Virus record (IMG/VR): IMGVR_UViG_2802429220_000008
Coordinates: 1 to 18,046 of that record
Length of the DNA stretch: 18,046 nucleotides
Direction: 5' to 3' (one strand)
Source of the DNA: a virus
Lineage: Duplodnaviria > Heunggongvirae > Uroviricota > Caudoviricetes
The position numbers were made by a program, and so were the translations under genes. The notes beneath the pieces were generated by a model. That model was not told where the DNA came from, did no database searches, and worked only from the letters and a program-made list of their open reading frames with translations. Of the stretch, positions 3,934 to 14,397 are shown piece by piece. The first letter of the stretch is position 1; every line of letters starts with the position of its first letter.

Positions 3934-4899
3934 ATGAAGCTCCTTTTTGCTGAACGTCCGCTGGTTATAAACACGCAGCTGGCGATGAAAATTGGTCTGA
4001 ACGAAGCCATCGTGTTGCAGCAGTTGCATTACTGGTTGAGAGATACCGGTTCCGGCATGGAATGTGATGGTGTTCGCTGGATTTATAACACAACAGAACA
4101 ATGGCTGGAGCAGTTCCCGTTCTGGTCAGAGTCAACGTTAAAACGCGCATTTGCAAGTCTGAAAACGCTGGGGCTTTTGCGTTGCGAAAAGCTCAATAAA
4201 TCAAAGCGTGATATGACTAATTTTTACACGATTAATTACGAGAGCGAGCTTTTAAATGGTGGCAAAGTGAGCGAATCCATCAGGTCAAAATGCGCTGCTC
4301 CATCAGGTCAGAATGACACGATGGAAGGGGCCAAAATGGCACGTTCCATTGGTTCAAAACGACTCAATGTCATCGGGTCAAAATGGCCTGATGATCTTAC
4401 AGAGAATACAACAGAGATTACTACAGAGAATAAAAACACTTCTCGTCCGGAAGCTTCGCAACCGGACCCGCAGACGGTTGAACAGGATTTTTTAACCCGA
4501 CACCCTGACGCGGTTGTGTTCAGTGCAAAAAAACGCCAGTGGGGCAACCAGGAAGATTTGGCGTGTGCGCAGTGGATCTGGGGACGAATCGTGAGTCTTT
4601 ACGAGCAGGCCGCCAGCGATGATGGCGAGATTTCGCGACCGAAAGAACCCAACTGGACCGCATGGGCCAACGACGTGCGCACAATGCGGATGCTGGATGG
4701 CAGAACTCACAGACAAATTTGTGAAATGTTTGGTCGGGCGCAGCGGGATCCATTCTGGGTAAAAAATATCATGAGTCCGTCAAAGCTTCGCGAAAAATGG
4801 GATGAACTGGTTATCCGCCTGGGGCGTTCGTCTGTACAGCGTTGCGTGAATCATATTTCTGAGCCGGATACCGAAATTCCGCCGGGGTTCAGGGGGTAA
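3934..4899 (+). CDS. Replication initiator (lambda O-like / YdaU-like) containing the origin
   Basis: N-terminal domain LVINTQLAMKIGLNEAIVLQQLHYWL; internal iteron array plus AT-rich tract; start chosen at ATG 3934 after a G-rich tract (track start 3910 is TTG). Confidence 0.75.
   Translation: MKLLFAERPLVINTQLAMKIGLNEAIVLQQLHYWLRDTGSGMECDGVRWIYNTTEQWLEQFPFWSESTLKRAFASLKTLGLLRCEKLNKSKRDMTNFYTINYESELLNGGKVSESIRSKCAAPSGQNDTMEGAKMARSIGSKRLNVIGSKWPDDLTENTTEITTENKNTSRPEASQPDPQTVEQDFLTRHPDAVVFSAKKRQWGNQEDLACAQWIWGRIVSLYEQAASDDGEISRPKEPNWTAWANDVRTMRMLDGRTHRQICEMFGRAQRDPFWVKNIMSPSKLREKWDELVIRLGRSSVQRCVNHISEPDTEIPPGFRG
4276..4386. repeat. Five iterons at 23-24 bp spacing (candidate replication origin inside the initiator gene)
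   Basis: Core ggtcaaaatg at 4283, ggtcagaatg at 4306, ggccaaaatg at 4329, gttcaaaacg at 4352, ggtcaaaatg at 4376, each preceded by tccatca-like; followed by AT-rich acagagaata repeats at about 4395-4440. Confidence 0.7.
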
Positions 4900-5673: not shown

Positions 5674-6444
5674 ATGGAAACCGTTTTTGACGCACTGAAA
5701 GCAATGGGAAAAGCCACATCGGTAGAACTGGCCGCGCGACTTGATATCAGTCGTGAAGAGGTTCTCAACGAGCTGTGGGAACTCAAAAGAAATGGCGTCG
5801 TTGATAAAACTGGTCACACCTGGTTTCTGGCTGGCGAAGGTGAATCCCTGGTAACCGAAGAGCGGCCAGTAAAATCTGAAGCACAGGATATGCTGACCGG
5901 GGAGGTCGAACAAAAAGTTACCGCAGACATGATGATTGAGTTTATCGGTCAGGATGGGGCTAAAACGTGTGAGGAACTGGCGGGTAAGTTCGGCATCAGT
6001 ACTCGCAAGGTTGCTTCCACGCTGGCGGTGGTAACTGCAACGGGGCGGCTGGCACGCGTTAATCAGAGCGGTAAATTTCGTTACTGCATGCCGGGCGGTA
6101 ATTTACCAGCAGAGCCGAAAGCAGCATCGGTAACGGAAAATGATGGTAAGGCCTTTCCTCAGCCAGCAGGTGTTGCGTTACCAGTCCGGGAAGCCGCAAC
6201 ACAGGAAGAAATTAAAACAGAAACTGTGGCGGACATTGTGCAGCCGTTGCTATCGTTTACCGAAACGCAAGCAGATGAGCTGATTTTTCCGTCCCTGCGC
6301 AGGGCAAACCTGGCGCTGCGCAGGGCGAAAAGTGATGTTCAGAAGTGGGAGCGAGTCTGCGCCGCGCTGCGGGAGCTGAACAAGCACCGGGATATTGTTC
6401 GACAGATTACTGATTCTTCCCGCCGTGTTGTATCGGAAAAGTGA
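5674..6444 (+). CDS. Hypothetical prophage protein with two tandem winged-helix-like segments
   Basis: 256 aa; GGAGG RBS 8 nt upstream; two similar segments ([30 protein letters not shown] and [31 protein letters not shown]). Confidence 0.65.
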
Positions 6445-7786: not shown

Positions 7787-7849
7787 TGCTGCGGGTGCTT
7801 GAGGCTGTCTGCCTCGGGCATGCCACCGTAAGGCAGACAGAGAAAAGCC

Positions 7850-7915
7850 CCAGTTAACATTACGCGTCCTGCAAGACGCCTAACATTAATCTGAGGCCAA
7901 TTTCATGCTAGACAT
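7850..7915 (-). ncRNA. Predicted Sok-like antisense RNA region (boundaries uncertain)
   Basis: Inferred from hok-family organisation; candidate minus-strand promoter -35 TTGCCT (7948..7943), 17-bp spacer, -10 TAACCT (7925..7920) would give an RNA antisense to the mok start; no clean terminator found. Confidence 0.25.
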
Positions 7916-8117
7916 ATGTAGGTTAGCCTCTTACGCGCCGAAAGGCAAGGAGAAGCAGGCTATGAAGCAGCAAAAGGCGATGTTAATCGCCCTGATCGTC
8001 ATCTGTATCACCGTCATAGTGACGGCACTGGTAACGAGGAAAGACCTCTGCGAGGTACGAATCCGAACCGGCCAGACGGAGGTCGCTGTCTTCACAGCTT
8101 ACGAACCTGAGGAGTAA
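7905..8117 (+). CDS. Mok-like reading frame (in-frame leader encompassing hok)
   Basis: 70-aa ORF MLDICRLASYAPKGKEKQAMKQQK... with GAGG 8 nt upstream; same frame as hok, resembling the arrangement remembered for MokC/HokC. Confidence 0.5.
   Translation: MLDICRLASYAPKGKEKQAMKQQKAMLIALIVICITVIVTALVTRKDLCEVRIRTGQTEVAVFTAYEPEE
7962..8117 (+). CDS. hok: Hok/Gef-family type I toxin (HokD/RelF-like, 51 aa)
   Basis: MKQQKAMLIALIVICITVIVTALVTRKDLCEVRIRTGQTEVAVFTAYEPEE: single TM helix plus conserved TRKDLCE...REVA.F.AYE motif. Confidence 0.9.
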   Translation: MKQQKAMLIALIVICITVIVTALVTRKDLCEVRIRTGQTEVAVFTAYEPEE

Positions 8118-8564: not shown

Positions 8565-9614
8565 GTGCGGGTATTACTTCGACCTGTTCTGGTACCGGAA
8601 CTCGGTCTGGTTATCGTTAAGCCAGGCCGTGAATCAATGTCAGCATTCCATAACGGCAGAATACTGGTGGAGCCGGAACCAAAAAGCATGCGAGCTCTGC
8701 CGTCCGGGGTTGTACCTGCCGTTCACCAGCCGCTGGCGGAAGATAAATCACTACTGCCATTTTTCAGCGATGAGCGGGTGAGCCGTGCTGCGGGTGGCGC
8801 TGGTGCACTGTCTGACTGGTTATTACGTCACGTGAAATCCTGCCAGTGGCTACACGGTGATTATCATCACAGCGAAACCGTCATTCACCGTTACGGTACC
8901 GGCGCAATGGTGTTGTGCTGGCACTGCGACAACCAGCTGCGTGACCAGACATCCGAATCACTCGAGCAACTTGCTCATCAAAACCTGTCAGCATGGATGA
9001 TTGACGTCATCGGTCACGCAATAAGCGGTACGCAGGAGCGTGAATTATCTCTGGCTGAATTATCCTGGTGGGCGGTCCGCAATCAGGTGGCGGACGCGCT
9101 ACCGGAAGCGGTATTACGTCGTTCGCTGGGGTTGCGTGCGGAAAAAATCCGCTCCATGTACCGTGAAAGCGACATCGTACCGGGAGAGCAGACCGCCACC
9201 AGCATACTGAAACAGCGCACAAAAAATCTTGCGCCGCTGCCTCACGCCCACCAGCAACAGAACCCACCACAGGAAAAGACGGTGGTCAGCATTGCCGTTG
9301 ATCCTGAGTCTCCGGAATCTTTCATGAAACGACCTAAACGTCGCCGCTGGGTTAACGAGAAATACACTCGCTGGGTGAAGACACAGCCGTGTGCGTGTTG
9401 TGGTAAGCCAGCCGACGATCCCCATCACCTGATTGGTCATGGTCAGGGCGGAATGGGGACAAAATCTCACGATATTTTCACGCTACCGCTGTGTCGGGAG
9501 CATCATAACGAGCTTCATGCGGATCCGCTGGCGTTCGAAGAAAAGCATGGTTCTCAGGTTGATTTAATTTTTCGTTTTCTTGATCACGCCTTTGCAACCG
9601 GTGTGCTTGGGTAA
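8565..9614 (+). CDS. DUF968-domain protein (YdfU-like)
   Basis: 349 aa; C-terminal Cys/His-rich motif CACCGKPADDPHHLIGHGQGGMGTKSHD...LCREHHNELH; GGAGG just upstream of GTG start at 8565. Confidence 0.75.
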   Translation: MRVLLRPVLVPELGLVIVKPGRESMSAFHNGRILVEPEPKSMRALPSGVVPAVHQPLAEDKSLLPFFSDERVSRAAGGAGALSDWLLRHVKSCQWLHGDYHHSETVIHRYGTGAMVLCWHCDNQLRDQTSESLEQLAHQNLSAWMIDVIGHAISGTQERELSLAELSWWAVRNQVADALPEAVLRRSLGLRAEKIRSMYRESDIVPGEQTATSILKQRTKNLAPLPHAHQQQNPPQEKTVVSIAVDPESPESFMKRPKRRRWVNEKYTRWVKTQPCACCGKPADDPHHLIGHGQGGMGTKSHDIFTLPLCREHHNELHADPLAFEEKHGSQVDLIFRFLDHAFATGVLG

Positions 9615-9627
9615 AAGGGGGGTATTG

Positions 9628-9990
9628 ATGTGTATAGAGTTTGTTTTGCCTTACCCGCCGACGGTGAATACTTACTGGCGACGTCGTGGCAGCACATATT
9701 TTGTATCAAAAGCCGGGGAGCGTTATCGCCGGGCAGTGGCGTTTATTGTTCGCCAGCAGCAGTTGAAATTAAGCCTGTCCGGACGGCTGGCAATAAAAAT
9801 TATTGCAGAGCCACCGGATAAGCGCCGCCGTGACCTGGACAATATTCTGAAAGCACCGCTGGATGCGCTGACGCACGCGGGGTTGTTAATGGACGATGAA
9901 CAGTTTGATGAAATCAATATTGTACGTGGTCAGCCAGTATCTGGTGGACGGCTGGAAATAAGAATTACAGAGGTGGGTGTGCATGAATAA
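9628..9990 (+). CDS. rusA: RusA Holliday junction resolvase
   Basis: 120 aa from ATG 9628: LPYPPTVNTYW...RRRDLDNILKAPLDALTHAGLLMDDEQ...GGRLEIRITE, colinear with E. coli RusA. Confidence 0.9.
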   Translation: MCIEFVLPYPPTVNTYWRRRGSTYFVSKAGERYRRAVAFIVRQQQLKLSLSGRLAIKIIAEPPDKRRRDLDNILKAPLDALTHAGLLMDDEQFDEINIVRGQPVSGGRLEIRITEVGVHE

Positions 9991-10672
9991 CCAGTATTTA
10001 CAGTTTGTTCGTGAGCAACTCATGATTGCCACTGCAGATCTCAGTGGGTCGACAAAAGGCCAGCTGGAAGCCTGGCAGGAAAATGCCCTGTTCGATACAG
10101 GGCGTTACAGACGCAAAAAAATTCGTTACCGCGATGAGGTAACTGGAAAAATGATCACGCGGGATAATCCCCCGATCCAGGGTAAACAATCACTGGCGAA
10201 AGGCTCATCAATTGCGCTGGTCAGTCCTGTTGAGTTTGCAACATCATCGTGGCGGCGTGCCCTTCTGGAACTGGAAGAACATCAGAAGGCGTGGTTGTTG
10301 TGGTGTTATGGCGGAAACATTTGCTGGGAGCATCAGATCGCGATAACGCAGTGGGTGTGGAGTGAATTTAAAACTCAGTCCGGCTCCAGAAAAATTGCAG
10401 TGAAAACGCTGGAGCGTGTGAAGAAGTTGATCTGGCTGGCGGCACAGGATGTCAGAGGATGGGTTACCGGGTGTGAGGTCTACCAGAGACAGGAGCTTGC
10501 CAGACTGTGTGGAGTTAAGCCTGATAACTGGAGCCATAATTATGCGAACTACTGGCGTGAGATGTGCGATATTTTTAAGCGCCTCGATAGAGAATCCTTG
10601 ATTTGCTCCGTGAAAATAAGAGCGCAACAAAAAGCGACCTTTTCACGACGAGATATTGCAAAAGTCAATTAA
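9983..10672 (+). CDS. Late-gene antiterminator Q-like protein (Qin QuuQ / phage 82-type), assigned mainly by position
   Basis: 229 aa directly after rusA and before a short terminated region; start ATG 9983 overlaps the rusA stop with GAGG upstream; no sequence-level confirmation. Confidence 0.5.
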   Translation: MNNQYLQFVREQLMIATADLSGSTKGQLEAWQENALFDTGRYRRKKIRYRDEVTGKMITRDNPPIQGKQSLAKGSSIALVSPVEFATSSWRRALLELEEHQKAWLLWCYGGNICWEHQIAITQWVWSEFKTQSGSRKIAVKTLERVKKLIWLAAQDVRGWVTGCEVYQRQELARLCGVKPDNWSHNYANYWREMCDIFKRLDRESLICSVKIRAQQKATFSRRDIAKVN

Positions 10673-10732
10673 ATCGCGTATGTTTCGTATAAATCTGATA
10701 TTTTGCCGATTTTGTACGCGATGGCAAAGTAA

Positions 10733-10760
10733 GAAAAAACCACCGCTAGGTGGTTTTTTT
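10733..10760 (+). terminator. Intrinsic terminator about 60 bp after the Q-like gene (tR'-like candidate)
   Basis: A-tract, stem ccacc/ggtgg with loop gcta, then 7 Ts; candidate promoter elements TTGCAA (10656-10661) and TATGTT (10679-10684) upstream. Confidence 0.6.
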
Positions 10761-10883
10761 ATGTCCGAAAATCTCGTCAGTACAGTAAACGCGCTGGTGG
10801 TGGTGAATACCGGTCTTTCAGCTTGCTGGCTTTTTTGACAAGAGTTATTGGTGTGTCACGTTAACCGGAAAAGGGAAAAAGAC

Positions 10884-11081
10884 ATGCTGAAACAGCAGGA
10901 TATGACCGAAACCGCCAGAGTGGTGTTTAATGAATTAAGCGTCACTGAACCGGCGACAGTCGGGGAGATTGCGCAGAATACTTATCTTTCACGTGAACGC
11001 TGCCAGTTAATACTGACCCAGCTTGTTATGGCGGGGCTGGCAGACTATCAGTTCGGTTGTTACAGACGCCTTCAGTCCTGA
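10884..11081 (+). CDS. Small winged-helix-like protein (65 aa)
   Basis: MLKQQDMTETARVVFNELSVTEPATVGEIAQNTYLSRERCQLILTQLVMAGLADYQF; start moved to ATG 10884; followed by a terminator. Confidence 0.5.
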   Translation: MLKQQDMTETARVVFNELSVTEPATVGEIAQNTYLSRERCQLILTQLVMAGLADYQFGCYRRLQS

Positions 11082-11091
11082 AGGCTTTTTT
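11068..11091 (+). terminator. Intrinsic terminator
   Basis: Stem gccttcag/ctgaaggc around loop tc, then tttttt; overlaps the stop codon of the preceding small gene. Confidence 0.6.
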
Positions 11092-11232
11092 ATTTGTGGT
11101 AAATGGGCGGCTGGTGGGTGTTAGGGGCACTCACCAGCCATCTGCTCATGCGTCCGGATCACAAGCAAACCTCAGGCCCATCTGCTTTGCGCAAAAGCAG
11201 AATGAGCCTATCAGAGACAGGCTTAATGATCC

Positions 11233-12291
11233 ATGCTTAATACTGTAAAAATATCCAGTTGTGAGTTAATCAACGCCGACTGCCTGGAATTTATCCGGTC
11301 GTTACCCGAAAATTCTGTTGACCTGATAGTCACGGACCCGCCGTACTTTAAAGTGAAGCCTGAGGGCTGGGATAACCAGTGGAAGGGCGACGATGATTAC
11401 CTGAAGTGGCTGGACCAGTGTCTTGCGCAGTTCTGGCGGGTGCTGAAACCTGCCGGAAGTCTTTACCTGTTCTGTGGCCATCGCCTGGCATCTGATATCG
11501 AAATCATGATGCGTGAACGCTTCAGTGTGCTGAACCATATTATCTGGGCGAAGCCGTCCGGACGCTGGAACGGGTGCAACAAGGAAAGCCTGCGGGCGTA
11601 TTTTCCGGCAACAGAGCGCATTCTGTTCGCGGAACATTATCAGGGGCCGTATCGTCCGAAAGATGCCGGGTATGAGGCGAAGGGCAGGGCACTGAAACAG
11701 CATGTGATGGCCCCGCTGATTGCTTACTTTCGTGATGCGCGCGCTACCCTGGGGATAACGGCAAAACAGATTGTGGATGCCACAGGAAAGAAAAACATGG
11801 TGTCGCACTGGTTCAGTGCCAGCCAGTGGCAGTTACCGAACGAGGATGATTACAGAAAACTTCAGGTGCTGTTTGCCCGGGTGGCAGAAGAGAAACATCA
11901 GCGGGGTGAACTGGAAAAGCCACATCACCAACTGGTCAGCACATACAGTGAGCTGAACCGGCAGTATGCCAGCCTGCTGGAAGAGTACAAATCACTGCGG
12001 CGTTATTTTTCCGTATCGGCAGCCGTTCCTTATACGGATGTCTGGACGCACAAGCCTGTGCAGTATTATCCGGGCAAACATCCCTGTGAAAAACCGGCAG
12101 ATATGTTGCGGCAAATGATTACCGCCAGCAGTCGTCCGGGTGACCTGGTTGCAGATTTCTTCATGGGGTCCGGTTCGACAGTCAAAGCAGCGATGGCGCT
12201 GGGGCGTCGTGCAATTGGTGTCGAGCTGGAGGCTGAACGTTTTGAGCAGACCGCAAGGGATGTACAGAATTTAATCAGAAAGAGAGAGTGA
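11233..12291 (+). CDS. Orphan DNA methyltransferase (N6-adenine or N4-cytosine, DPPY motif)
   Basis: 352 aa; DLIVTDPPYF near the N-terminus and FFMGSGST near the C-terminus; no adjacent restriction endonuclease ORF. Confidence 0.8.
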   Translation: MLNTVKISSCELINADCLEFIRSLPENSVDLIVTDPPYFKVKPEGWDNQWKGDDDYLKWLDQCLAQFWRVLKPAGSLYLFCGHRLASDIEIMMRERFSVLNHIIWAKPSGRWNGCNKESLRAYFPATERILFAEHYQGPYRPKDAGYEAKGRALKQHVMAPLIAYFRDARATLGITAKQIVDATGKKNMVSHWFSASQWQLPNEDDYRKLQVLFARVAEEKHQRGELEKPHHQLVSTYSELNRQYASLLEEYKSLRRYFSVSAAVPYTDVWTHKPVQYYPGKHPCEKPADMLRQMITASSRPGDLVADFFMGSGSTVKAAMALGRRAIGVELEAERFEQTARDVQNLIRKRE

Positions 12292-12331
12292 TATTGCTGA
12301 ATTTATTCTGTAACGTTATCATTATGTTATC

Positions 12332-12407
12332 GGCCCTTTAGCTCAGTGGTGAGAGCGAGCGACTCATAATCGCCAGGTCGCTGGTTCAAATCCAGCAAGG
12401 GCCACCA
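12332..12407 (+). tRNA. tRNA with CAU anticodon (Met, or Ile2 if lysidine-modified)
   Basis: Manual fold: acceptor ggccctt/aagggcc, D-arm gctc..gagc, anticodon loop cuCAUaa, T-arm gctgg-ttcaaat-ccagc, 3' ACCA. Confidence 0.85.
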
Positions 12408-12408
12408 A

Positions 12409-12474
12409 CCGCCACTAGCTCATCAGGAAAGAACGTCACCCTGTGCGAGATTCGGAGTCCCCGGTGGCGGTCCA
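12409..12474 (+). other. tRNA-like remnant (perfect acceptor stem and CCA but too short, no canonical T-arm)
   Basis: ccgccac ... gtggcgg followed by tcca, 66 nt overall, sitting between two intact tRNAs where Stx-type phages carry three tRNAs. Confidence 0.35.
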
Positions 12475-12487
12475 TTATCAGCATTAT

Positions 12488-12564
12488 GCGTTGTTAGCTC
12501 AGCCGGACAGAGCAATTGCCTTCTAAGCAATCGGTCACTGGTTCGAATCCAGTACAACGCGCCA
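12488..12564 (+). tRNA. tRNA-Arg (anticodon UCU)
   Basis: Manual fold: acceptor gcgttgt/acaacgc, D-arm gctc..gagc, anticodon stem attgc/gcaat with loop cuUCUaa, T-arm cactg-gttcgaat-ccagt, GCCA end. Confidence 0.85.
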
Positions 12565-12575
12565 TATTTATTTAC

Positions 12576-12617
12576 CTGGCTCGCTTTTGCGGGCCTTTTT
12601 TGTATCTGCGTTACACC
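12576..12617 (+). repeat. Terminator-like element, copy A (ggctcgc-tttt-gcgggcc + ttttttgtatctgcg)
   Basis: Imperfect hairpin plus T-tract directly downstream of tRNA-Arg; about 80 percent identical to 13173-13213. Confidence 0.6.
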
Positions 12618-12653
12618 ATTAACTAATAAATCGAGTGCTTATCAGGAGGCTAT

Positions 12654-12878
12654 GTGAAAAAACTGATGGTGACGATTGGTCCGTTCGAAACAGAAGTTAG
12701 TTTTCGTGTTGTTCAGGGGGAGAGTGTACTTGTTGAAGATGTATTTCATGGAAAATCAACAGGTCCTTATGTAAAAGAATATCTTATCGACGCCACGGAT
12801 GAAAATATTGAGGTGGTGTACGATTCCGTCAATCACCCTGATTTGATCATTAAGGCAAAATTGAAGCCACTTTATTGA
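12654..12878 (+). CDS. Hypothetical small protein (74 aa), AT-rich cargo gene
   Basis: AGGAGG 4 nt upstream of GTG start; MKKLMVTIGPFETEVSFRVVQGESVLVEDVFHGK...; no family recognised. Confidence 0.5.
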   Translation: MKKLMVTIGPFETEVSFRVVQGESVLVEDVFHGKSTGPYVKEYLIDATDENIEVVYDSVNHPDLIIKAKLKPLY

Positions 12879-12930
12879 TCTGACCGGGAGCAATCATAAA
12901 ATATCTCTGGGTACCCACAAGGAGATAAAT

Positions 12931-13140
12931 ATGTTTGTTTCTGAAGTGTTAATGGAAGATAAGGACAACAAAGGATGGGTTAAAGGTTGGGCTGTGGTAA
13001 GAAGCTCGCCCTGGCATCTTGTTGGGGTTTTTGCGACAGAGGAAGACGCAGAAACGGAAGCAAGAAAGATGGGAGATAAGTACGAGGTTCACTATGGCTC
13101 GCATCGAACAGGAAGTGATGATTTTGTCTGGGGGGAGTAA
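12931..13140 (+). CDS. Hypothetical small protein (69 aa)
   Basis: AAGGAG 6 nt upstream of ATG; MFVSEVLMEDKDNKGWVKGWAVVRSSPWHLVGVFATEEDAETEARKMG...; no family recognised. Confidence 0.55.
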   Translation: MFVSEVLMEDKDNKGWVKGWAVVRSSPWHLVGVFATEEDAETEARKMGDKYEVHYGSHRTGSDDFVWGE

Positions 13141-13172
13141 CAGTCGTTTAACCCCAGAATAATCCCGTAACT

Positions 13173-13213
13173 GAGGTCGCTATTGGCGGCCTTTTTTGTA
13201 TCCGCGCCACGCC
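13173..13213 (+). repeat. Terminator-like element, copy B (ggtcgc-tatt-ggcggcc + ttttttgtatccgcg)
   Basis: Second copy of the element at 12576-12617; together they bracket the two small ORFs. Confidence 0.6.
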
Positions 13214-13329
13214 CGGCACATATCAACCACAGAGCCTTTCGGGGGTGAGCTTACGGAGTGGTCAGTGTGACTTTCTCTGTGGGCAGATCGCTCCCGGGCG
13301 TTGGCTCACCCACCCAAAGGAACGTCACG

Positions 13330-13761
13330 ATGTTTGGTATTTTCAAAAAGAAAACCCGCAGAGCAGCAGCGGAAATTAAAAAGTTTGAGAAACGTGATCT
13401 GGCACAGGCGGTTATTAATGCTGCCTATCTGGTGGCCTATGCAGATGGTGAATGTGAGGCTTCAGAGAAAGCGAAGATCGAGCAGGTCTTGCGTAACCAG
13501 CCAGCGTTGTCCGCGTTTACGTCAGAAATTAATGCTATCAGTGCCACGATCACAGGTCAGCTTGACACCAACTTTAAAATTGGTCGTCGAGCGGCGTTGC
13601 GTGAAATTGAAGATGTGAAACACGATACGCGTGAAGCGGAAGATGTGCTGGATGTGGCGGTGGCCATTGCTGAAGCAGATGGTGAAATTGAGCCGGAAGA
13701 GCGTAAGGTTCTGGAAGAGATCGCCGGTGTTCTTGGCCTGCGACTGGAGAACCACCTGTGA
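13330..13761 (+). CDS. TerB-like domain protein
   Basis: 143 aa from ATG 13330 (AGGA 8 nt upstream); two TerB-like repeats AYADGECEASEKAKIEQVL and AEADGEIEPEERKVLEEIAGVLGL. Confidence 0.6.
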   Translation: MFGIFKKKTRRAAAEIKKFEKRDLAQAVINAAYLVAYADGECEASEKAKIEQVLRNQPALSAFTSEINAISATITGQLDTNFKIGRRAALREIEDVKHDTREAEDVLDVAVAIAEADGEIEPEERKVLEEIAGVLGLRLENHL

Positions 13762-13922
13762 CGGTAAAACTGCGTCTGGCCGCTGTGGCACTCCTGCTGT
13801 TTCTGGTGGTGATGGTGGACTTCACCAGCAGGATCATGTCGGTGCTGGCGGATGGAGTGCTGGTGGTCGGTATTGTGGTGGTGCTTTTTCCTTTGGTGAA
13901 AAAGGAGATGTCAGGTAGTTAG
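13758..13922 (+). CDS. Small two-helix membrane protein (54 aa), translationally coupled to the TerB-like gene
   Basis: GTG start overlapping the TerB-like stop (GTGA); GGAGA 8 nt upstream; LLLFLVVMV and VLVVGIVVVLF hydrophobic segments. Below the track size cut-off. Confidence 0.35.
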   Translation: MTVKLRLAAVALLLFLVVMVDFTSRIMSVLADGVLVVGIVVVLFPLVKKEMSGS

Positions 13923-14156
13923 CCGGGTATCAGTCATGCCCTGAAAATTTTAAATGTCTCACAATTCAGACGGTTGACAGTTGTCTGGTTTGCGGGGAGT
14001 TTGTTAAAAGAAACTGGCATGGTGAATCCCCCTGAGCGGAGGGGCATATCAGCGCAGGTGTTTCTACTCTATCCTTTCTGTGCGGGTTCAGGTGCTGATA
14101 CTGAACTCACCGGGAGGCACCCGGCACCATGCAAGAAAAAGAATGTGCATGCAAAC

Positions 14157-14184
14157 ATGCCCCTCTCCGGAGGGGCATTTTTAT
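14157..14184 (+). terminator. Intrinsic terminator
   Basis: Perfect 9-bp stem atgcccctc/gaggggcat, loop tccg, then ttttat. Confidence 0.6.
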
Positions 14185-14397
14185 GGGTAAAAAATGCCCG
14201 AATGGGTTCGGGCAATAGCATGAGATACTGATATTGTTGTGTTGTTATCGTGTGGATTTTAACCAGGGTTTATCAGGCTGCGCAACTGCGTGGCCTTTTT
14301 TCATTTCTTGGGCTGTAGTCCCCGTGTGTCATTCAGGCTTCCGGACTACAGCCCACTCCATATCTGATTTAATACACTATCCCGGCCGGGAGGAATA

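Follow-up and report, generated by a model that had tools for sequence, protein, structure and literature searches.

TerB-type proteins and their membrane partners

The tciA/tciB cassette was first named in phage P1, where it lies within the C1-repressed ban operon (P1 RefSeq annotation). P1 carries a third gene, tciC, encoding a 35-aa microprotein with a single transmembrane (TM) segment. TciA peptides have been detected in P1 lysate preparations (PMC9024508), and tciA, tciB and tciC each proved non-essential by CRISPRi (PMC10695390). In P1-like phage-plasmids, the tci operon falls in a highly variable region and is absent from about half of one subgroup (PMC9603915). The pairing, the gene names and both protein families are on record in Pfam, PHROGs, RefSeq and the P1 annotation. 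Beyond the reports just cited, no tciAB experiments or functional data were found in the literature searched.

The same domain, in a protein of about equal length, occurs in the terZABCDE(F) operon (TerB structure 2jxu). There too, the gene following terB encodes an inner-membrane protein: in the canonical ter operon used for comparison, terC starts 11 nt after terB, and an interaction between TerB and TerC has been reported (Turkovicova 2016, as cited in PMC11003894). TerC, however, is a 344-aa protein, whereas the neighbor of TciA is a 54-aa microprotein. Published work describes TerB as membrane-associated or amphitropic, and metal binding has been proposed for the duplicated acidic motif of its family, aDGxhxxxE. 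The recently validated anti-phage systems Bunzi, Shango and Dionysus also combine a TerB domain with membrane-associated components. A two-protein TerB unit that is kept from P1 to N4-like phages would offer a simple experimental handle on the role of the TerB domain, in the ter operon as in these defence systems.

The tciA and tciB genes of the prophage

The window (the whole 18,046-nucleotide stretch of viral DNA analysed here) contains, at positions 13330-13922, a gene pair that is almost certainly phage tciA/tciB, specifying a TerB-type protein and a 54-residue membrane protein. RefSeq holds the identical pair at 100% identity, under the labels "TerB family protein" and "DUF3927 family protein", and a 100% nucleotide match is present in E. 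coli YZ_2_1. Among 5426 complete E. coli genomes, 807 (15%) carry the pair, with a median of 4 copies, and 208 database clusters bear the name "DUF3927 family protein". A preliminary description of this DNA had suggested a new, unannotated pairing; this suggestion did not hold, as the pair corresponds to P1 tciA/tciB and RefSeq, PHROGs and Pfam hold both families. The same description placed the small ORF below the cut-off of its gene track, which is true of that track only, the ORF being annotated in RefSeq. With both genes, their pairing and their names on record, the pair is of little weight as a discovery. Of the cargo units in EHEC-type prophages to which no function has been assigned, it is nonetheless one of the most frequent, and a genome that carries it usually has several copies.

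The tciA gene (13330-13761, on the plus strand like all features located below) encodes a stand-alone TerB-family protein of 143 aa. It runs from an ATG at 13330 to a TGA at 13759-13761 and is preceded, 8 nt upstream from the ATG, by a Shine-Dalgarno-like AAGGA (13317-13321). The TerB-like assignment, originally made from the sequence alone, was upheld by profile searches: residues 26-138 match Pfam family PF05099 (TerB) with 61.2 bits (cut-off 24.4, E 1.4e-16), and the match to PHROG 632 has an E-value of 1.8e-69. Similarity extends to the solved TerB 2jxu (E 1e-7, phmmer) and to the TerB protein of a ter operon (34% identity, E 1e-21, BLASTP). AlphaFold2 models TciA as a helical bundle, with pLDDT values of 79-93 across about residues 20-140. 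The top Foldseek match of the model is 2h5n (probability 1.00, TM 0.57-0.60, E-value only 0.024), which we take to be TerB-like by classification. The all-helical domain is acidic (net -13); ahead of it, residues 1-22 form a basic N-terminal tail of net charge +7 that begins with MFGIF. The duplicated, putatively metal-binding acidic motif of the TerB family is recognisable in TciA as two ADGE...E motifs, DGECEASE (residues 39-46) and DGEIEPEE (residues 117-124). In a set of eight diverse phage TciA proteins, D39, G40, E46, D117 and E124 are invariant and G118 is nearly so. Matches of TciA to zf-HC2/anti-sigma (E 4.5e-4, below cut-off) and to DjlA (28.9 bits against a cut-off of 162) were dismissed as cross-hits of the TerB repeat.

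The tciB gene (13758-13922) begins with a GTG (13758-13760) that overlaps the tciA stop codon in the tetranucleotide GTGA (13758-13761), an arrangement that couples the translation of the two genes. A Shine-Dalgarno-like GGAG (13746-13749) can be read within the end of tciA, 8 nt upstream from the GTG. Both the overlap and the limits of the 54-aa hydrophobic ORF had been given exactly in the preliminary description. The encoded membrane microprotein belongs to family DUF3927 (Pfam PF13064; 58.8 bits, cut-off 25, E 5.4e-16) and matches PHROG 1470 ("TciB-like") with an E-value of 1.1e-24. By itself, a 54-codon ORF is within chance expectation, 47 ORFs of at least 30 aa overlapping the same 3.5 kb. 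That tciB is a real gene is shown by the Pfam and PHROG matches, by the recurrence of a homologue at the TerB stop across loci (see below) and by dN/dS ratios, which are 0.08-0.40 for most informative pairs. The gene is evolving under purifying selection, and selection is seen on both the tciA and the tciB frames.

TciB has a GRAVY value of 1.60. Its conserved core reads VDFTS(R/K)..S(V/I)LADG, and lysine or arginine residues are found at both termini. Hydrophobic stretches at residues ~6-20 and ~26-47 are divided by the VDFTS(R/K) motif, which would accommodate the two-helix topology proposed in the preliminary description, and the distribution of positive charges is compatible with an N-in/C-in hairpin. 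The AlphaFold2 model, however, shows one continuous helix spanning residues 3-52 (pLDDT 90.9). A tblastn search of the phage collection with TciB as query returned no match; nucleotide and HMM searches do find TciB in those records, and the empty result is attributed to the BLAST low-complexity filter acting on a hydrophobic query.

Relationship to ter genes and conservation of the pairing

A view of TciB as a fragmentary or miniature TerC was rejected, the two showing no detectable similarity (hhalign probability 0.2%); for this reason the parallel between TerB-TerC and TciA-TciB is an analogy only. Neither terC nor any gene of the terD family (terZ/A/D/E) was found among the window ORFs scanned, whereas all are present in the true ter operon used for comparison. 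The window ORFs of suitable size are DnaC-like, DUF1627, DUF551, DUF968, Q, methylase and lysozyme. A genuine tellurite-resistance determinant, the reading invited by the name of the family in databases, finds its sole support in that name and in the homology to TerB, and the lack of TerC, TerD/E and TerZ/A, all carried by a real ter operon, makes it exceedingly improbable. The authors of the PMBT3 genome likewise rejected tellurite resistance for a lone phage TerB.

In the lambdoid phage JLK-2012, the homologous genes are annotated tciA/tciB and their products are 97% (TciA) and 81% (TciB) identical to those of the window. JLK-2012 and the RefSeq pairs from EHEC-type prophages have the cassette in the same slot as the window (Q - tRNAs - tciAB - nanS-p/yjhS - lysis genes), from which they differ only allelically: the C-terminal tail of TciB, the set of upstream tRNAs and the presence or absence of two small hypothetical ORFs. 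The P1 cassette is similarly built, with a TerB-family protein of 141-144 aa, a 54-aa DUF3927 protein, overlapping stop and start codons, matches to PHROGs 632 and 1470 and flanking phage tRNA genes in both cases. It differs in sequence (identity 42-52% for TciA, 43% for TciB) and in control, P1 having the C1-controlled ban operon and the window the Q-dependent late region of a lambdoid prophage. It also differs in the presence of tciC: no ORF follows tciB in the window, and neither JLK-2012 nor the prophages annotated in RefSeq show a tciC.

Across a wider sample, a TciB homologue overlaps or adjoins the TerB stop codon in 100 of 110 loci examined, including 80/80 viral contigs and 14/21 species genomes, showing that the frame of the small ORF is conserved in homologous loci. 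The 14 species belong to the Enterobacterales and Aeromonadaceae. The GTGA junction itself is shared by 86 of 100 loci. Within a diverse phage set, junction spacing varies from -8 to +3 nt; this set comprises lambdoid phages, P1 and P1-like phage-plasmids, the N4-like virulent phages Pollock and SP-058, the Erwinia jumbo phage ChrisDB, Pantoea phage LIET2 and Klebsiella phage 5, in which the tciB homologue had been left unannotated. The pairing is therefore conserved across unrelated temperate and virulent phages, and tciAB is a mobile two-gene accessory module of phages. Identities of TciA and TciB show no tight correlation from phage to phage; therefore, both genes recombine independently to some extent. 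Phage TerB genes lacking a partner exist (PMBT3, Vibrio K480).

Pseudomonas phages and prophages present a variation of this scheme. They too pair a TciA-like TerB protein (38-51% identity) with a small membrane ORF, which overlaps the TerB stop in the prophages and begins 4 nt after it in phage Ebordelon. The product of this ORF, however, is a non-homologous 67-aa protein (PHROG 27356); it has two conserved cysteines and a single hydrophobic segment, at its N-terminal end. Database entries in which TerB is joined to DUF3927 (P0124, P0186, P0290) were considered as natural fusions and rejected as frameshift or chimera artefacts, as were two proteins joining TerB to other domains (P0252, P0294). 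All five contain out-of-frame linker peptides or unrelated N-termini. P0124 was modelled with AlphaFold2 to stand in for the TciA-TciB complex; the model was confident for the TerB domain, showed TciB as one helix of low confidence and was uninformative about an interface.

Late-region placement and proposed function

The Q antiterminator gene (9977-10672; Pfam PF06323, E 3.7e-83) provides the context for tciAB by defining the late transcription unit that contains it. Within this Q-dependent late region, the pair lies downstream of Q, amid terminator-like hairpins, and upstream of nanS-p and the lysis genes; the coupling of a TerB-like protein to a small hydrophobic membrane protein ahead of nanS-p had been correctly recognized. 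A consensus scan located one such hairpin, followed by a T run, 5′ of tciA (13173-13198), at the 5′ boundary of the cassette. If it functions as a terminator, transcription entering from upstream must read through it to reach tciA. The first feature 3′ of tciB, marking the other boundary, is the gene for the STnc100 sRNA (13988-14188; Rfam RF02076, 151.6 bits, gathering score 47), whose terminator hairpin was placed by the terminator scan at 14157-14178. A crude consensus scan revealed no recognisable promoter match in front of the pair, which is still compatible with weak expression in the lysogen. JLK-2012 and E. coli strain 2012C-4227 have the same gene order, Q - tRNAs - tciAB - esterase - holin. 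Stx phages carry stx in the late-region slot that tciAB occupies here.

Adjacency to tRNA genes is seen in P1, in E. coli lambdoid phages and in an Erwinia jumbo phage; it is missing in CharmingMan and, with few exceptions, in the remaining Enterobacterales and Pseudomonas loci inspected for tRNA genes. A mechanistic tie between tciAB and phage tRNA genes was rejected, the adjacency reflecting a shared cargo region. That the pair is accessory cargo and not a core phage function, as proposed in the preliminary description, agrees with the dispensability of the P1 genes (PMC10695390) and with the variability of the corresponding P1-like region (PMC9603915).

Position downstream of Q with no promoter match, inclusion in the ban operon of P1, the finding of TciA in P1 lysates and presence in virulent phages all argue for expression during lytic growth. 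Taken together, the evidence points to an accessory module made in lytic growth and not to a defence system of the lysogen. Defence had been part of the earlier reading. In such a system, TciB would be a small membrane-damaging effector and TciA the sensor of the membrane perturbation that an incoming phage causes, the two protecting the lysogen by anti-phage defence or abortive infection. The occurrence of TerB domains in Bunzi, Shango and Dionysus, where a role in "membrane surveillance" has been proposed, the phage inhibition and colicin resistance conferred by the ter operon (according to references as quoted elsewhere), the high variability, among P1-like phage-plasmids, of the region where tciABC lies and the cargo slot occupied by tciAB are in line with this reading. 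Against it, a PADLOC v2.0.0 scan gave no match for TciB and, for TciA, only a sub-threshold match to PDC-S48 (E 0.002) over a 35-residue stretch. Dionysus (2025) is outside this PADLOC version and was compared by its published description; it has additional components such as a four-TM pore-forming toxin and a MAEBL/TM protein, and such extra enzymatic or pore-forming components of the validated TerB systems are absent here. Furthermore, those systems are host defence-island genes, whereas tciAB is kept also by phages that make no lysogens, namely virulent N4-like and jumbo phages. No promoter could be recognised for the window pair itself, which lies in a late region behind terminator-like hairpins, and the P1 copy belongs to a repressor-controlled operon. 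Lysogen defence consequently appears unlikely. A "stress module" reading, also part of the preliminary description, is possible.

Presence in virulent phages, where the N4-like neighbors are a dUTPase, an ATPase and small unnamed genes, would suit a role in counter-defence or host takeover. A phage TerB and its membrane partner would then disturb host TerB-dependent functions (those behind the ter Phi phenotype or of Bunzi/Shango/Dionysus type) or another envelope stress response during infection. Mimicry is conceivable given the 34% identity of TciA to ter-operon TerB, and presence of the pair varies among close relatives. Yet P1 retains the genes though its E. coli K-12 hosts are devoid of ter operons, and simple mimicry leaves the conserved membrane partner unexplained. 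We regard this possibility as decidedly unlikely.

The lysis genes nearby suggest a further role, in lysis timing, with TciB as a small holin-like (or antiholin-like) membrane protein and TciA as its cytoplasmic regulator. The size and hydrophobicity of TciB are typical of small holins; the pair is found between Q and the holin/endolysin genes in CharmingMan, Klebsiella phage 5 and Pantoea prophages, and upstream of the esterase and lysis genes in the window. The pair does not adjoin lysis genes, however, in P1, in the N4-like phages or in the Erwinia jumbo phage; close relatives possess a separate class II holin, and the P1 genes are non-essential. A lysis-timing function is, on this evidence, very improbable.

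Our favored interpretation, which is probably correct, is that TciA and TciB form a two-protein, membrane-associated unit at work during the lytic cycle. The pair would ride in the Q-dependent late transcript, TciB being translated by coupling at the GTGA overlap and inserted in the inner membrane. TciA would be cytoplasmic, with its hydrophobic-then-polybasic N-terminal tail ahead of the acidic helical domain; the MFGIF sequence and net +7 charge of this tail, and the description of TerB as membrane-associated or amphitropic, suggest that it associates with the membrane. By analogy with TerC for TerB, TciB may serve as membrane partner or anchor of TciA. That the two would act as one unit, made during lytic growth, is suggested by the retention of a TciB homologue at the TerB stop, by the substitute ORF in Pseudomonas and by the terB-terC order and reported interaction. 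The phage TerB genes that lack a partner and the loose correlation between TciA and TciB identities weigh against it. Such a unit, dispensable for plaque formation, might condition the inner membrane of the infected cell, possibly as a buffer against ion, metal or envelope stress. Superinfecting phages or pore-forming colicins might be excluded as a by-product. These specific effects (membrane/ion conditioning, exclusion) are proposed only tentatively.

A bolder version, which we consider rather unlikely, would make tciAB a minimal, self-contained TerB switch, deployed in lytic growth by very different phages, virulent ones included, either to seal the membrane of the infected cell against superinfecting phages and colicins or to counter host immunity that relies on TerB. 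Between this prophage and the N4-like phages, TciB is 50-51% identical, while TciA is only 31-37% identical; the higher conservation of TciB would fit a contact of TciB with a conserved host inner-membrane target.

The tciA and tciB genes

ORF A extends on the + strand from an ATG at 13330 to a TGA at 13759-13761 (143 aa), and ORF B, on the same strand, from a GTG at 13758 to position 13922 (54 aa); the stop codon of the former and the start codon of the latter have the bases GTGA in common. An AAGGA motif is found 8 nt 5′ of the ORF A ATG, and a GGAG motif, lying within the end of ORF A, precedes the ORF B GTG by 8 nt. The preliminary description was accurate on the ORF ends, the GTGA overlap and the strong hydrophobicity of ORF B. 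The length of ORF B is by itself no evidence of a gene: the same 3.5 kb is overlapped by 47 ORFs of 30 aa or more, and chance alone could give 54 codons. Pairwise dN/dS values in the ORF B frame range from 0.08 to 0.40 in most informative pairs. Judged from their sequences, both ORFs are real genes from known families and constitute the tciA/tciB cassette.

The pair is already known and routinely annotated. RefSeq names its products "tellurite resistance TerB family protein" and "DUF3927 family protein", and homologous genes are called tciA and tciB in phage JLK-2012, in the order Q - tRNAs - tciA - tciB - yjhS - S - R. The names originate from phage P1, where tciA, tciB and tciC follow tRNA genes in the C1-controlled ban operon. 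The pair has a 100% nucleotide match in one E. coli chromosome, and the 593-bp cassette is present in 807 of 5426 complete E. coli genomes (median 4, maximum 8 copies per positive genome). It also occurs in 914 plasmid records; those among the matches listed are mostly non-mobilizable plasmids of ~90-115 kb from E. coli and Klebsiella, sizes typical of P1-like and other phage-plasmids.

Profile searches upheld the TerB-like assignment of ORF A (Pfam PF05099, 61.2 bits against a cut-off of 24.4, E 1.4e-16). The protein is also matched over its full length by PHROG 632, "tellurite resistance" (E 1.8e-69), is 34% identical (BLASTP, E 1e-21) to TerB of the canonical ter operon of a Pseudomonas plasmid, and matches the solved TerB structure 2jxu (phmmer, E 1e-7). 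Its AlphaFold2 model is all-helical, with pLDDT 79-93 over approximately residues 20-140, and has 2h5n as top PDB match in Foldseek (probability 1.00, E 0.024, target TM 0.57-0.60). The N-terminal tail of TciA (MFGIFKKKTRR...) is hydrophobic, then polybasic, with a net charge of +7 over 22 residues; the domain that follows is acidic (net -13) and carries two ADGE...E motifs. A role in tellurite resistance proper is most improbable, as no TerC or TerD-family partner is found among the window ORFs scanned.

ORF B belongs to the DUF3927 family (PF13064, 58.8 bits, cut-off 25) and matches PHROG 1470, "TciB-like" (E 1.1e-24). In a library of 1.84 billion representatives the family forms ~120 clusters at 50% identity; at 90% identity there are 208, nearly all named "DUF3927 family protein". 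TciB has a GRAVY of 1.60 and two hydrophobic stretches, spanning residues ~6-20 and ~26-47; both of its ends bear K/R residues. Its core, VDFTS(R/K)...S(V/I)LADG, is conserved and places an aspartate within the second of these stretches. The hydropathy profile and the distribution of charges would suit a two-helix hairpin, but AlphaFold2 renders TciB alone as one continuous helix (residues 3-52, pLDDT 90.9). Comparison of TciB with TerC revealed no similarity. Database proteins that seemingly fuse TerB to DUF3927 (P0124, P0186, P0290 and P0252) proved to be frameshift or assembly-chimera products and should not be taken as natural domain fusions. One apparent fusion in public databases bears the name "zinc-finger family protein". 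An AlphaFold2 model of one of the TerB-DUF3927 fusions revealed nothing about an interface.

TerB genes and their membrane partners

The coupling was surveyed in 80 viral contigs, 21 one-genome-per-species bacterial loci and 15 annotated phage or plasmid regions, using an HMM built from seven TciB sequences. A TciB ORF adjoins or overlaps the stop of TerB in every one of the 80 viral contigs and in 14 of the 21 species loci, confirming the existence of the overlapping gene pair and the conservation of the small frame at homologous loci. The positive species loci are from Franconibacter, Pantoea, Pseudescherichia, Enterobacter, Dryocola, Serratia, Symbiopectobacterium, Pectobacterium, an Aeromonadaceae MAG and an unclassified Proteobacteria MAG. 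At one more Pantoea locus the position of tciB is taken by a hydrophobic ORF of 49 aa that is divergent (PHROG 1470, E 0.021). Among the first 110 loci, GTGA forms the junction in 86 of the 100 with a detected TciB ORF, and the junctions of the diverse phage set are all tight (-8 to +3 nt).

The pair is not limited to temperate elements. Two virulent phages of the N4-like type, Pollock (gp27/gp28) and FSL SP-058, carry it, as do Erwinia jumbo phage ChrisDB (gp6/gp7; PHROG 1470, E 1.6e-19) and Pantoea phage LIET2. Klebsiella phage 5 LV-2017 (KY271399) has a 51-aa tciB homologue at 1923-2078 of the collected locus (HMM E 5.4e-30), in GTGA overlap with the TerB stop and absent from the GenBank annotation. 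Identities to the window proteins vary independently: 31% for TciA and 51% for TciB in Pollock, 70% and 37%, respectively, in ChrisDB. In some lambdoid elements the pair neighbours the holin and endolysin genes, which would agree with a role in lysis timing, but P1, the N4-like and the jumbo phages do not fit, and such a role is very unlikely.

In seven Pseudomonas prophages (loci L100 and L104-L109, ~4435-4640), the start of a 67-aa ORF overlaps the stop of a TciA-like TerB gene (GTGA/TTGA). This partner (PHROG 27356) is non-homologous to TciB and has one N-terminal hydrophobic segment and two conserved cysteines. A like ORF, annotated "membrane protein", begins 4 nt after the TerB stop in Pseudomonas phage Ebordelon (1643-1846 of its locus). 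The arrangement looks convergent with tciAB. In the canonical ter operon, terC, encoding an integral membrane protein, lies 11 nt after terB. With TciB, the PHROG 27356 ORF and TerC each next to TerB, the placing of a membrane partner beside TerB is thus a design that recurs, with at least three unrelated partners. Only PMBT3 and Vibrio K480, among the phages examined, have a lone TerB gene followed by a hairpin. What the present work adds is solely that the coupling extends broadly over temperate and virulent phages that are unrelated, and that Pseudomonas has small membrane partners not homologous to TciB.

The region between Q and the esterase

The window corresponds to the immunity-to-lysis portion of a lambdoid prophage. 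A CI-type HTH repressor is followed by a DnaC-like loader, DUF1627 (5674-6444), DUF977, a hok/sok locus, DUF968, RusA (9580-9990), Q (9977-10672), a DNA methylase (11233-12291), two tRNA genes (12332-12564), two + strand ORFs hypothetical in RefSeq (74 aa, 12654-12878; 69 aa, 12931-13140), tciAB, the sRNA genes STnc100 and AgvB, the nanS-p-type esterase (14398-16248), DUF1327 and lysozyme. In Stx1 phage BP-4795, stxA1 and stxB1 lie between Q and the esterase in place of tciAB; thus, tciAB and Shiga toxin share a cargo slot.

Terminator-like hairpins are enriched from 10500 to 16800 (17 on both strands against 5.6 expected), those on the + strand between Q and nanS-p starting at 10742, 11068, 12578, 13173, 14157, 14162 and 14275. 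This excess would be compatible with a late transcript relying on Q antitermination. A crude scan of the stretch from the hairpin at 13173-13193 to the start of tciA found no sigma-70-like promoter, and we infer that tciAB is probably transcribed mainly by Q-modified polymerase in lytic growth.

These data bear on the proposal, made in the preliminary description, that the pair is a stress or defence module. Accessory cargo combining a TerB protein with a membrane partner was correctly recognized, but the defence reading found no support. A system protecting the lysogen is unlikely: the pair has no PADLOC match, has no promoter of its own in the crude scan, is repressed in P1 lysogens and, what weighs most, is conserved in virulent phages.

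The tRNA genes flanking tciAB are Met-CAT and Arg-TCT in the window, Asn and Thr upstream and a CAT-anticodon tRNA downstream in P1, Asn, Thr and Gly in JLK-2012, and six in ChrisDB. This adjacency holds for P1, the lambdoid phages of E. coli and the Erwinia jumbo phage but fails in most other taxa; it suggests a cargo region in common or a block transferred together. The 74-aa ORF may be a gene remnant, since it covers only positions 100-171 of the 291-position PHROG 2571; the 69-aa ORF has a full-length match to PHROG 4280. The closest genome carries an IS66 insertion directly upstream of both. The 475-nt "intergenic" gap between tciB and nanS-p contains, back to back, STnc100 (RF02076, 13988-14188, + strand, 151.6 bits) and the anti-GcvB sRNA AgvB (RF02702, 14189-14250, - strand, 96.5 bits), each with its own terminator hairpin. 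The hok/sok-type toxin-antitoxin in the nin region (7793-7967 and 7905-8117, both +) comprises a sok RNA (RF01794, 114.3 bits) overlapping an ORF of 70 aa with a match to Hok/Gef (PF01848, E 2.3e-23). The window may also encode a PasA or PasC sRNA, because DUF1627, RusA and TerB, all present, are "PasA/PasC conserved genes" in a 2026 preprint on prophage Pas sRNAs (10.64898/2026.05.13.724894); the Rfam scan of the window gave no Pas match.

Possible role of the TciA-TciB pair

The literature searched on tciA, tciB, DUF3927 and the TerB domain yielded annotation-level statements only. TerB of the ter operon is reported to be membrane-associated. It is also reported to be a partner of TerC (Turkovicova 2016, as cited in PMC11003894). 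We consider it fairly probable that TciA and TciB form one membrane-associated unit acting in the lytic cycle. The unit would be produced during lytic development and would condition the inner membrane of the infected cell; candidate effects are ion or metal buffering, relief of envelope stress, exclusion of colicins or superinfecting phages, and interference with host TerB-dependent immunity. Lytic expression is supported by the Q-dependent position, by C1 control of the operon in P1 and by the occurrence of the pair in virulent phages, while the breadth of the coupling and the non-homologous Pseudomonas partners argue for a two-component membrane function in that cycle. The distribution of the pair would also be compatible with a counter-defence module, a reading that we regard as quite doubtful.

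Whatever its role, tciAB would offer a convenient minimal system for learning what TerB domains do. In P1, tciA, tciB and tciC are non-essential for plaque formation, as judged by CRISPRi (PMC10695390). P1-like phage-plasmids have eight highly variable regions; the tci operon occupies one of them, and about half the members of one subgroup lack it (PMC9603915). TciA peptides have been detected in P1 lysate preparations (PMC9024508).
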